A stretch of DNA of 32,000 bases from Prochlorococcus marinus subsp. pastoris str. CCMP1986 (GTDB lineage Bacteria; Cyanobacteriota; Cyanobacteriia; PCC-6307; Cyanobiaceae): positions 600,001 through 632,000 of the forward strand of contig NC_005072.1 in assembly GCF_000011465.1 (NCBI RefSeq), read 5' to 3'. A program made the translations under genes and the position numbers. Numbering within the stretch: position 1 is the first letter of the stretch; every line of letters starts with the position of its first letter. Below are positions 21,572-28,378 of this stretch, piece after piece. The notes below the pieces were generated by a model, which did not search any database, was not told the DNA's origin, and saw only the letters and a program-made list of their open reading frames with translations.

Positions 21572-21620
21572 AAAGTAAAAACAAGAAACCCTTCCAGAAA
21601 TTCCCACTACCAGAAGGGTT
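21572..21620 (-). terminator. Rho-independent terminator (minus strand)
   Basis: On the minus strand, AACCCUUCUGG-uagugggaauuu-CUGGAAGGGUU forms an 8 bp Watson-Crick stem, extendable to 11 bp with two G-U pairs. UUCUUGUUUUU follows immediately. Confidence 0.5.
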
Positions 21621-21734
21621 ATTAAATTGAATACACTACTATACGTAATCAATCTATGTCTTGGAGTTAAACATATATTCAACTCATTGAGGTTTGGCCT
21701 CAATTAATTTATAGCAAAATAATTAGAAACCAAC

Positions 21735-25756: not shown

Positions 25757-25846
<90 letters not shown>

Positions 25847-26012: not shown

Positions 26013-26762
26013 ATGAAAACATATCTAGAAGAGAGACTTGAATGGTACGACCACAATTACAGAATAGGAAATTCCTTAATTACAGATAAACAATTTGATC
26101 AGTTAGAAAAAAATCTTTTAAGAATAGATCCTGATTGTGATTACTTCACTAATAAAAAATCTCTCCCATTACCTTCATTAAAAAAGAATTCTATTGATGA
26201 ATTTTTAGAAGGATTGCTACCTGATACTCGATTATTAATAGAACCTAAGATTGATGGCATTGCTATTGCTTTGCAATACAGAGATGGCACTTTAGAAAAG
26301 TCCATTTCTAGAAAAGGTATAGATGTCACAAACAAAATTGCTGAAATTCAAGACATTCCCCTCAAACTTCCTGTTTCAGGAATTTTGCAAATTAGAGGCG
26401 AACTTTTCACTCCAAATAGATCTCCCAACTTTTCCCAAAGAATTGCATCAGGCTTCGTCCGAGCTGCAGCAGGGTCTCCAGAAGGTATCAGCTTTTGCGG
26501 TTTCCAAATTATTAATGGAAAGCTTAATCAATACGAAACCATTCAATATCTTAAAAAACTTGGCTTCAACACCCCAGACATTAAAAGCTGTAATTACACA
26601 AGCCAAGTCCAAGTCTTTAGGAAACAATGGTTAGATAAAAAAATATTTACTGAATATCCAACTGACGGAATAGTAGTCAAAATAAATTCTAGAAAATTAC
26701 AATTAATTAGAGAGAAATCAAAGATTGATTATCCTCACTGGCAGATCGCCATAAAGGATTAA
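26013..26762 (+). CDS. Stand-alone NAD-dependent DNA ligase (LigA) domain Ia plus adenylation domain; OB, Zn, HhH and BRCT modules absent
   Basis: Has a domain Ia-like LEERLEWYDHNYRIGNSLITDKQFDQLEKNL, the catalytic-lysine motif EPKIDGIAIALQY, LQIRGELF, TDGIVVKIN, and ends at HWQIAIKD (equivalent to LigA WAIAYKF). Confidence 0.8.
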   Translation: MKTYLEERLEWYDHNYRIGNSLITDKQFDQLEKNLLRIDPDCDYFTNKKSLPLPSLKKNSIDEFLEGLLPDTRLLIEPKIDGIAIALQYRDGTLEKSISRKGIDVTNKIAEIQDIPLKLPVSGILQIRGELFTPNRSPNFSQRIASGFVRAAAGSPEGISFCGFQIINGKLNQYETIQYLKKLGFNTPDIKSCNYTSQVQVFRKQWLDKKIFTEYPTDGIVVKINSRKLQLIREKSKIDYPHWQIAIKD

Positions 26763-27728: not shown

Positions 27729-27765
27729 AAAAAAGGCCACGTAACGTGGCCTTTTTTTATTTTTG
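27729..27765. terminator. Bidirectional rho-independent terminator between convergent small genes
   Basis: A perfect GC-rich hairpin GGCCACG-uaa-CGUGGCC (27735..27751) is flanked by an A6 run upstream and a T7 run downstream. It therefore works on both strands. Confidence 0.75.
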
Positions 27766-27773
27766 TATAGTAA

Positions 27774-27875
27774 TTAACTTGTGTAAGCTTTGCCTCTATA
27801 AGTTAATTCTGTATGCTGTTTTTTTGCAGCTACTTTGTTTTGGACGTATTTTTGTCCTCTGTAGATAAGTGTCAT
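27774..27875 (-). CDS. Unannotated 33-aa YRG-repeat peptide (DUF4278-like)
   Basis: Hand translation gives MTLIYRGQKYVQNKVAAKKQHTELTYRGKAYTS*. The two Y-R-G-x-x-Y units are the hallmark of the small cyanobacterial peptides found downstream of the Downstream-peptide/glutamine-II RNA motif. SD GGAG lies 9 nt upstream, and the terminator is immediately downstream. Confidence 0.6.
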   Translation of the reverse strand: MTLIYRGQKYVQNKVAAKKQHTELTYRGKAYTS

Positions 27876-27972
27876 CTATTTTCTCCGGTTTCGCCCAAGT
27901 CCCCGTTCCATGGCTTAAGTCGATTTGCGGCTTGCATTATTACAAGTTGAACGTTTTGGTAGCGGTTGCTAC
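27876..27972 (-). promoter_or_regulatory. GC-rich structured 5' leader; candidate glutamine-binding (Downstream-peptide/glnA-like) riboswitch
   Basis: The minus strand reads GUAGCAACCGCUACCAAAACGUUCAACUUGUAAUAAUGCAAGCCGCAAAUCGACUUAAGCCAUGGAACGGGGACUUGGGCGAAACCGGAGAAAAUAG-AUG. The 5' CGUUCA can pair with the downstream GAACG. UUGG-GCGAAA-CCGG can sequester part of the SD. The last 53 nt are 31/53 G+C by hand count in a ~30% G+C genome. A -35 TTCACA (28007..28002), 17-nt spacer and -10 TAATAT (27984..27979) lie just upstream. Confidence 0.35.
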
Positions 27973-28177
27973 AAATTAATATTAACACATTGGTAATTTT
28001 TTGTGAAGGCTTTAAATGACATTTATACTATTTAATCGAAGAAAATTTATCTATTAAGTGATACGAAATCTCTTTTTAGAATAATTTAATGATTTAGACA
28101 GGTTACATTTTGTTCAATTAATCTATTTATTTTTAATAACTTTACTTTTTAAATGTAAAATTCAGAGGATTATAACG

Positions 28178-28378
28178 ATGTTTATGTTCTCAAGAAACAA
28201 AAAATCTCCTAGTAAAAAAGCTTCAGTAGTTGAAGAAAAACCTTTGTATGCGCAGTTACTTCCATTCGCGAATGTCATGACTGAGAAGGTTCAAGTGGTT
28301 AATGCTTTGGCTTTTACTTTAATAATGGGTGTTTCAATTTTTGGGATAGCTCTTTGGAGGCTTTCTGCTCTAACTTAA
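28178..28378 (+). CDS. Small hypothetical protein with a C-terminal TM helix
   Basis: A 66-aa ORF with ATG preceded by AGAGGA. It has a basic N-terminus and the hydrophobic segment ALAFTLIMGVSIFGIALW. Confidence 0.45.
   Translation: MFMFSRNKKSPSKKASVVEEKPLYAQLLPFANVMTEKVQVVNALAFTLIMGVSIFGIALWRLSALT

Follow-up and report, generated by a model that had tools for sequence, protein, structure and literature searches.

The 32,000-nucleotide stretch of Prochlorococcus marinus subsp. pastoris str. CCMP1986 (MED4) analysed here (contig NC_005072.1, positions 600,001 to 632,000; hereafter the window) carries on its minus strand the yfr6 gene, an already published locus in which a nitrogen-regulated promoter and a glutamine riboswitch precede a 33-amino-acid (aa) peptide. 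The best explanation of this locus, in which we place high confidence, is that yfr6 is under nitrogen control at two levels, an NtcA promoter and a Glutamine-II riboswitch, and makes a peptide of the DUF4278 family. Every element of this glutamine-sensing module is in print for yfr6 and nothing essential is new, the locus being identical to Yfr6/TX50_RS09260 of MED4 as described before (Axmann 2005; Weinberg 2010; Klahn 2018). Our additions are only the statistics over orthologues and paralogues and a candidate pairing for the OFF state. An earlier note, made from the DNA letters alone, had proposed a complete glutamine-sensing module at this place; its three layers stand, but the hairpin mechanism that it suggested for the Shine-Dalgarno (SD) sequence does not.

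Window positions become MED4 coordinates by adding 600000, an offset that agrees with Yfr13 and with the RefSeq gene coordinates. The Yfr6 transcript occupies 27729..27972 on the minus strand and is a monocistronic mRNA of 244 nucleotides (nt), composed of a 5' hairpin, the riboswitch leader, a 33-codon open reading frame (ORF) and a terminator. Yfr6 was placed at complement(627729..627972), with a length of 244 nt; its mapped 5' end is the G that follows the TATA element, and the 33-aa frame opens behind a leader of about 97 nt (Axmann 2005, PMC1242208). These published ends coincide with the last U of the terminator (27729) and the first G of a palindrome (27972), which is transcript nt 1 here and from which all nucleotide numbers (C20, G69, C86 and so on) are counted. 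The bidirectional intrinsic terminator had been correctly recognised; the terminator scan places it at 27729..27757 on both strands, with the stem GGCCACG/CGUGGCC (27735..27751) standing between an A run and a T run, and in the Yfr6 direction the stem (27751..27735) is followed by six U. The leader measures 97 nt, close to the 95 nt estimated before, but it starts with the palindrome and not with CGUUCA, which lies 19 nt further downstream. The ORF MTLIYRGQKYVQNKVAAKKQHTELTYRGKAYTS (27774..27875, minus strand, AUG at 27875) is present where the earlier note had seen it and is in the ORF list, and it has its own SD sequence, GGAG (27886..27883), 7 nt ahead of the AUG. Its description as unannotated is outdated: an exact-sequence look-up of the peptide returns WP_071812974.1, 'DUF4278 domain-containing protein [Prochlorococcus]', and RefSeq NC_005072.1 annotates TX50_RS09260 with this product and accession at 627773..627875 (-), in a table that is reproduced in a 2026 preprint (doi 10.64898/2026.04.15.718746). 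The whole transcript is predicted to fold at -64.2 kcal/mol (z = -6.2). The G+C peak of 31/53 reported for the leader is correct for 27883..27935 and not for the 53 nt directly ahead of the AUG (27/53); in the window it ties with a stretch at 26449 and stays below a tRNA at 32/53.

For comparison, metagenome contigs were scanned with the invariant 23-base aptamer core, which gave 110 usable instances and 104 distinct leaders. These were split by their peptide into 80 with an N-terminal YRG (DUF4278-like) and 24 in a phage-like context, and leaders encoding MTLIYRGQKYVQNK...TYRGKAYTS were taken as Yfr6 orthologues (14 distinct ones, the window included). An earlier scan of genome contigs (596 Gb) with CGTTCA-N{8,38}-CGCA-N{8,38}-GGAACGGG, which specifies 18 bases, was too loose: among the matches listed, nearly all were chance occurrences in GC-rich bacteria and only L014, L020, L062 and L109 were picocyanobacterial.

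The promoter scan confirmed the sigma-70-type promoter TTCACA-17-TAATAT that had been proposed (27979..28007, minus strand), with a TG extension. Its -10 hexamer TAATAT ends 6 nt ahead of the transcription start site (TSS), which is the G of the palindrome; the same 6-nt gap between -10 hexamer and palindrome G recurs in 15 homologous promoters that are AT-rich, as the mapped TSS would lead one to expect. The start predicted at the palindrome from the letters alone is the 5' end that had been mapped to the G at 27972 (Axmann 2005). By sequence and motif search, the palindrome, GTAGCAACCGCTAC, is a perfect GTA-N8-TAC NtcA-type site at +1..+14 (27959..27972, minus strand). The window contains 7 copies of GTA-N8-TAC where 3.7 are expected (the earlier note had guessed about ten by chance), so the motif alone is weak evidence, and it is position and conservation that carry weight. 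As for position, the palindrome overlaps the TSS, as expected for NtcA-repressed promoters of the gifA/gifB type, rather than the -35 region. As for conservation, all 14 distinct Yfr6-orthologue leaders keep GTA-N8-TAC exactly 19 nt upstream of CGUUCA while their -35 and -10 regions diverge, and three of them carry N8 variants (GCAACCAC, GCAATGGC and GCGCACGC). A perfect site no more than 30 nt upstream of the aptamer is present in 60/80 DUF4278-type leaders versus 1/24 phage-like leaders. Published work points in the same direction: a perfect NtcA site over the TSS and the same regulatory logic were reported for WP_071812974 (Klahn 2018, PMC6212724), the Yfr6 Northern signal is lower on nitrogen depletion (Axmann 2005, PMC1242208), and the 2026 preprint lists the NtcA motif GGTAGCGGTTGCTACA at 627957-627973 and places TX50_RS09260 in the MED4 NtcA iModulon. 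In the gene-coefficient matrix of that preprint, the NtcA iModulon weights are -0.140 for TX50_RS09260 and -0.114 for its paralogue PMM1846, and +0.175 for ntcA and +0.186 for glnA. The weight of yfr6 is opposite in sign to those of glnA and ntcA, and its transcript therefore falls as the NtcA regulon rises. NtcA repression is thus the best reading of the palindrome at this locus, and the gif-like site at +1 suggested in the earlier note holds up; NtcA binding itself is inferred from where the site lies, from its conservation and from the expression of the gene. A second perfect GTA-N8-TAC (GTATGCGCAGTTAC), one of the 7, was observed at 28246..28259 inside a small plus-strand ORF (28178..28378, PMM1859). 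The preprint motif table also lists an RpaB/HLI-type motif, GTTACATTTTGTTCAA (p 0.0136), at 28101..28117, about 130 nt upstream of the Yfr6 TSS, and Yfr6 levels are known to be light-dependent (Axmann 2005, PMC1242208).

The riboswitch aptamer was identified with Rfam release 15 at gathering thresholds. The Glutamine-II model (type 2, Downstream-peptide; RF01704) matches 27894..27956 on the minus strand over all of its positions (1-60 of 60) with 64.7 bits against a gathering score of 33 (E 1.2e-13), far above chance, and a permissive rerun over the window found no second Glutamine-II copy. The aptamer ends 18 nt ahead of the AUG of the YRG-repeat ORF. When the parts of the aptamer are assigned by the numbering of the crystal structure (Huang 2019, PMC6698751), P1 lies at 27946..27931 and P2 at 27919..27894 on the minus strand. 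CGUUCA (27953..27948) and GGAACG (27909..27904), whose pairing had been proposed from the letters, are both present, and the pseudoknot is formed by CGUUC (27953..27949) and its complement GAACG (27908..27904), that is, C20-C24 with G65-G69. The linking strand CGC (C44-G45-C46) lies at 27929..27927, and a long-range C:G pair joins 27927 to 27903 (C46:G70); pseudoknot, linking strand and long-range pair are all invariant in 13 orthologues. Like the crystallised aptamer of Prochlorococcus sp. RS01 (Huang 2019), yfr6 has the CGUUCA and GGAACGGG segments, with the same CGUUCA and GGAACGG pseudoknot strands, the CGC linking strand, an A ahead of the pseudoknot strand that is equivalent to A33, the long-range C:G pair and an A:G pair at the junction of pseudoknot and P2, whereas its P1 and P2 sequences are unlike those of RS01. 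We compared 13 orthologue leaders with a crystal-based structure made up of the 5' hairpin, P1, P2 with its 3-bp extension, the pseudoknot and the long-range C:G pair, and 99.5% of the cells could pair (100% in P1 and P2). Double-sided changes were found at 31:38 in P1 and at 54:79, 55:78 and 56:77 in P2; the observed covariation values were reached by at most 1 in 500 shuffles, and all slid controls were far lower. The covariance-model match together with this orthologue covariation establishes the Glutamine-II identity that had previously been proposed. Researchers have described the yfr6 5' untranslated region (UTR) as a Downstream-peptide RNA with a transcription start about 20 nt 5' of the motif (Weinberg 2010, PMC2864571), and the class was later named the type 2 glutamine riboswitch (Klahn 2018, PMC6212724). 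For other members of the family, glutamine binding has been demonstrated (Huang 2019; Ames and Breaker 2011). ON-switch behaviour was shown with a fusion of the MED4 yfr6 5'UTR to superfolder green fluorescent protein (GFP) in a Synechocystis host, in which fluorescence rose after addition of NH4+ (Klahn 2018, Fig. 3G), and the structural basis comes from the homologous aptamer, whose ligand-stabilised pseudoknot was proposed to compete with a structure that occludes the ribosome-binding site (Huang 2019, PMC6698751).

How glutamine binding might reach the SD sequence was approached by folding the MED4 leader (minimum free energy (MFE) structure and base-pair probabilities). The putative expression platform in the fold prediction spans 27883..27893 on the minus strand and consists of the P2 extension CGA (27893..27891) and CCGGAG. 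In the ligand-free ensemble, the predicted partners of C86, G87 and G88 are G45, C44 and C43 (probability about 0.98), and GGAG, which is unpaired at a mean probability of 0.48, reaches 0.98 once the pseudoknot and linking-strand residues are withheld. This points to a candidate OFF state in which the linking strand would pair with the SD region, a helix that is invariant in 12/13 orthologues. The linking strand C44-G45-C46 is equivalent to C17-G18-C19 of the crystal, which occupies the pseudoknot's major groove, stacks on glutamine and closes the pseudoknot helix (Huang 2019, PMC6698751). The partner of the SD varies over the 104 leaders, being the linking strand in Yfr6-type leaders and, in many Synechococcus-type leaders, the 5' strand of the pseudoknot, which would pair with a GGAAC mimic. 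Because the partner is heterogeneous, no single expression-platform model can be claimed; a conserved and covarying anti-SD helix was sought across the leaders and none was found, the pairing of linking strand and SD never varying informatively. In Synechococcus-type leaders, for example L165, L193 and L226, the SD region often holds a copy of the pseudoknot 3' strand (GGAAC or GAACG), whose predicted partner is the 5' strand CGUUC, and the OFF state predicted from the GGAAC mimic would be a different and more intuitive design than that of the MED4 leader. The explanation given in the earlier note, in which a UUGG-GCGAAA-CCGG hairpin at the leader's 3' end controls access to the SD, was rejected, and we leave it next to no probability. 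Four pairs (two G-C and two U-G) can indeed be drawn in the MED4 sequence, but the hairpin is refuted by the comparative data from 13 orthologues: UUGG is the 3' strand of P2, so the hairpin competes with a helix that pairs in 100% of orthologue cells, and both of its G-C pairs are lost in 9-10/13 orthologues (UUGG to UUAA). It is also absent from the MFE and centroid folds and exceeded none of the shuffled or slid controls.

The peptide is small (3.9 kDa) and very basic, with an isoelectric point (pI) of 10.1, a grand average of hydropathy (GRAVY) of -0.94, 7 K+R residues and two L-x-YRG-x-x-Y repeats. Its suggested membership of DUF4278 is borne out by Pfam PF14105, which scores 33.6 bits against a cut-off of 25.3 (E 5e-8) and aligns residues 1-32 with profile positions 1-34 of 57; the solved structures in PDB and the NCBIfam models gave no match. 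DUF4278 makes up the N-terminal portion of the glutamine synthetase (GS) inactivating factor IF17, where it stabilises the protein and is dispensable for GS inhibition (Klahn 2018, PMC6212724), and our literature search found nothing after 2018 on a DUF4278 function relevant to picocyanobacteria. Taken together, the proposed mechanism runs as follows. The sigma-70-type promoter starts transcription at the G of the NtcA palindrome. When nitrogen is short, high 2-oxoglutarate goes with active NtcA, and NtcA bound at the palindrome would block initiation, as at Synechocystis gifA and gifB. By stabilising the CGUUC/GAACG pseudoknot and pulling the CGC linking strand into the major groove, glutamine raises translation of the ORF. 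In the OFF state, as suggested by folding, C43-C44-G45 would pair with C86-G87-G88 of CCGGAG and mask half of the SD, and glutamine would free the SD by recruiting this anti-SD strand into the pseudoknot. The product is the very basic DUF4278 peptide with its two YRG repeats, and the antisense RNA Yfr14 over the leader may provide a third layer of control.

Several observations weigh against this reading of yfr6. On the promoter side, the window holds only about twice the expected number of GTA-N8-TAC sites, and no electrophoretic mobility shift assay, chromatin immunoprecipitation or footprint of NtcA at the yfr6 site was found in the literature searched. On the riboswitch side, the GFP response of the yfr6 UTR was slower and weaker than that of the type 1 riboswitch and was recorded in a heterologous host (Klahn 2018). 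As for the SD gating, the helix between linking strand and SD has only 3 bp and no covariation, one of its pairs is lost in the most divergent orthologue, L238 (CCGGAG to AAGGAG), and a control in which leader positions are withheld at random likewise lifts the accessibility of the SD, to 0.66 +/- 0.22. Moreover, the AUG sits inside a 7-bp hairpin in both modelled states. This start-codon hairpin (27862..27878 on the minus strand, nt 95-111) pairs the AUG with codons 3-5 at an unpaired probability of 0.01; it is specific to the MED4 clade and mostly lost in HLII-type orthologues. Finally, the peptide covers the N-terminal DUF4278 part only, and the IF7-like C-terminal region with which the 17-kDa IF17 binds GS through Arg/Lys residues is absent from its 33 aa. 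Because this GS-binding C-terminus is absent, the peptide should not be classed among the GS inactivating factors; that it inactivates GS is doubtful, and a GS-related role may be offered as a hypothesis.

The palindrome invites another explanation, since transcription begins at its first G and it is thus also a 5'-terminal stem-loop. As RNA, GTAGC-N4-GCTAC gives a 5-bp stem with a 4-nt loop at the extreme 5' end, without any 5' overhang, and the hairpin forms in all folds, both MFE and centroid. It could therefore act chiefly in the RNA, protecting the 5' end or insulating the folding of the aptamer, and not, or only secondarily, as an NtcA operator. Over 68 distinct cellular leaders, 84% of the hairpin cells pair, and the innermost pair changes from C:G to U:A (9), U:G (2) or A:U (1), with 10 double-sided changes; the loop AACN is conserved beyond the needs of the N8 spacer of NtcA. 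The leaders of PMM1846-type paralogues keep the stem at N7 or N6 (L192, GTAGC-TTT-GCTAC; L201, GTAGC-TAT-GCTAC; L221, GTAGT-ATT-ACTAC; and L161), and a Synechococcus-type leader, L187, has GTTGAG-ACT-CTCAAC with N11; these spacings are incompatible with a fixed-spacing dimer of the CRP family, and the drifted spacing in the PMM1846-type leaders suggests selection on an RNA hairpin. However, over the same 68 leaders the GTA/TAC core that NtcA contacts is nearly invariant and only the innermost pair covaries, so the pair counts that compare operator with hairpin are ambiguous. The exact N8 is kept in 14/14 Yfr6-orthologue leaders, L186 and L194 break pair 5 but retain GTA-N8-TAC, and the expression data agree with NtcA repression; a perfect palindrome is also expected of a high-affinity dimer site, and the two roles are not exclusive. 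We therefore regard a chiefly RNA-level role as unlikely, while an extra RNA-level role of the Yfr6 palindrome beside that of NtcA operator is possible. A broader version, which we rate higher and still only as tentative, holds that the palindrome is both an NtcA operator and a selected RNA stem-loop (GUAGC-N4-GCUAC) at +1 of most cellular Prochlorococcus and Synechococcus Glutamine-II mRNAs, and that the peptide acts on a target other than GS. If this were true, one 14-nt sequence would serve as a DNA operator and as an element of mRNA stability or folding, with the stem kept by compensatory changes and, in PMM1846-type paralogues, retained even where the spacing no longer suits NtcA.

A further explanation concerns the antisense strand. 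Yfr14 is a published antisense RNA of 252 nt at 27811..28062 on the plus strand (627811..628062; Steglich 2008, Table 1) that is up early in phage infection. It lies opposite the promoter of Yfr6, all of the riboswitch leader and the ORF's 5' half, and a weak promoter-like TTAACT-17-TATAAG was seen on the plus strand in the second YRG codons of the ORF. Following a proposal of Steglich 2008, Yfr6 and Yfr14 could form a pair resembling a type I toxin-antitoxin system, with the peptide as toxin and the antisense RNA as antidote, or Yfr6 could be a bifunctional riboregulator like RNAIII. The cover of leader and 5' part of the ORF by a phage-induced RNA, the short life of Yfr6 (about 2 min) and its pronounced structure (the z value given above) would fit such a pair. 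Nevertheless, the peptide is hydrophilic and basic and has no hydrophobic stretch, unlike type I toxins, and a toxin-antitoxin role is unlikely for it; numerous DUF4278 paralogues are likewise found under glutamine riboswitches and NtcA-type sites, wide conservation is limited to the 5'UTR (Weinberg 2010, PMC2864571), and Yfr14 was reported without homologues. We give this explanation very little credit, well below that of a mainly RNA-level palindrome, and two-level nitrogen control by NtcA and the Glutamine-II riboswitch remains our preferred account of yfr6.

Among the closest known systems is gifB of Synechocystis sp. PCC 6803, which encodes IF17 and, like yfr6, combines an NtcA-repressed promoter, a glutamine-activated translational ON switch and a DUF4278 product. 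The aptamers are different: that of gifB belongs to type 1 (glnA motif, RF01739) and has a three-way junction, whereas that of yfr6 is a coaxial P1-pseudoknot-P2 arrangement. Within MED4, the longer DUF4278 paralogue PMM1846 (TX50_RS02240) resembles yfr6 in its Glutamine-II riboswitch, its NtcA-type palindrome AGTAGCTATTGCTACA and its negative NtcA-iModulon weight. Its product is longer, about 57 aa, and has three YR[GR] repeats, compared with the 33 aa and two repeats of Yfr6, and the N7/N6 drift in palindrome spacing among its environmental relatives is not seen for Yfr6.

The comparative leader set also contained some variants of its own. In the 24 phage-like contexts (L129, L132, L135, L140, L154, L200, L206, L220 and others) the aptamer lies a few nt past the stop codon of the upstream gene and precedes peptides of 16-40 aa with a single C-terminal KYRGxxY, and the palindrome is present in one of the 24; these aptamers are probably cyanophage copies. 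Two of the picocyanobacterial matches of the 18-base scan, L014 (3069..) and L020 ((-) 2754..), have aptamers nearly identical to that of RS01, followed by a non-DUF4278 ORF (MNNLLQIREKIKRANRLYEAQL...) and without an upstream NtcA-type palindrome. In 21/28 GC-rich promoters a GAACR motif, often TGAACGAC, was found at -39/-38 from the first G of the palindrome (for example in the Synechococcus-type leaders L144, L157, L171 and L173), about 5 nt upstream of where a canonical -35 hexamer would lie, and it may represent either an atypical -35 element or a second site for a protein. Elsewhere in the window, the small RNA Yfr13 lies at 21601..21701 on the minus strand (Rfam RF02364, 105 bits; published as complement(621601..621701)) and tRNA-Ser(UGA) at 25757..25846 on the minus strand, in agreement with published MED4 coordinates. 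The neighbours nrdJ, trnS(UGA) and a truncated DNA-ligase fragment agree with Axmann 2005, and PMM0659 and PMM0660 are also found nearby.

The value of this result is that of a positive control, in which a published three-part regulatory module was recovered from raw sequence. The yfr6 gene is the reference example of the type 2 glutamine riboswitch and the type locus at which this class was shown to function, and the DUF4278 micro-peptides to which its product belongs are very abundant and multi-copy in picocyanobacteria. To our knowledge, glutamine riboswitches are the sole known RNA sensors of glutamine, and together with NtcA they are thought to link nitrogen status to the control of glutamine synthetase in the ocean's commonest phototroph.

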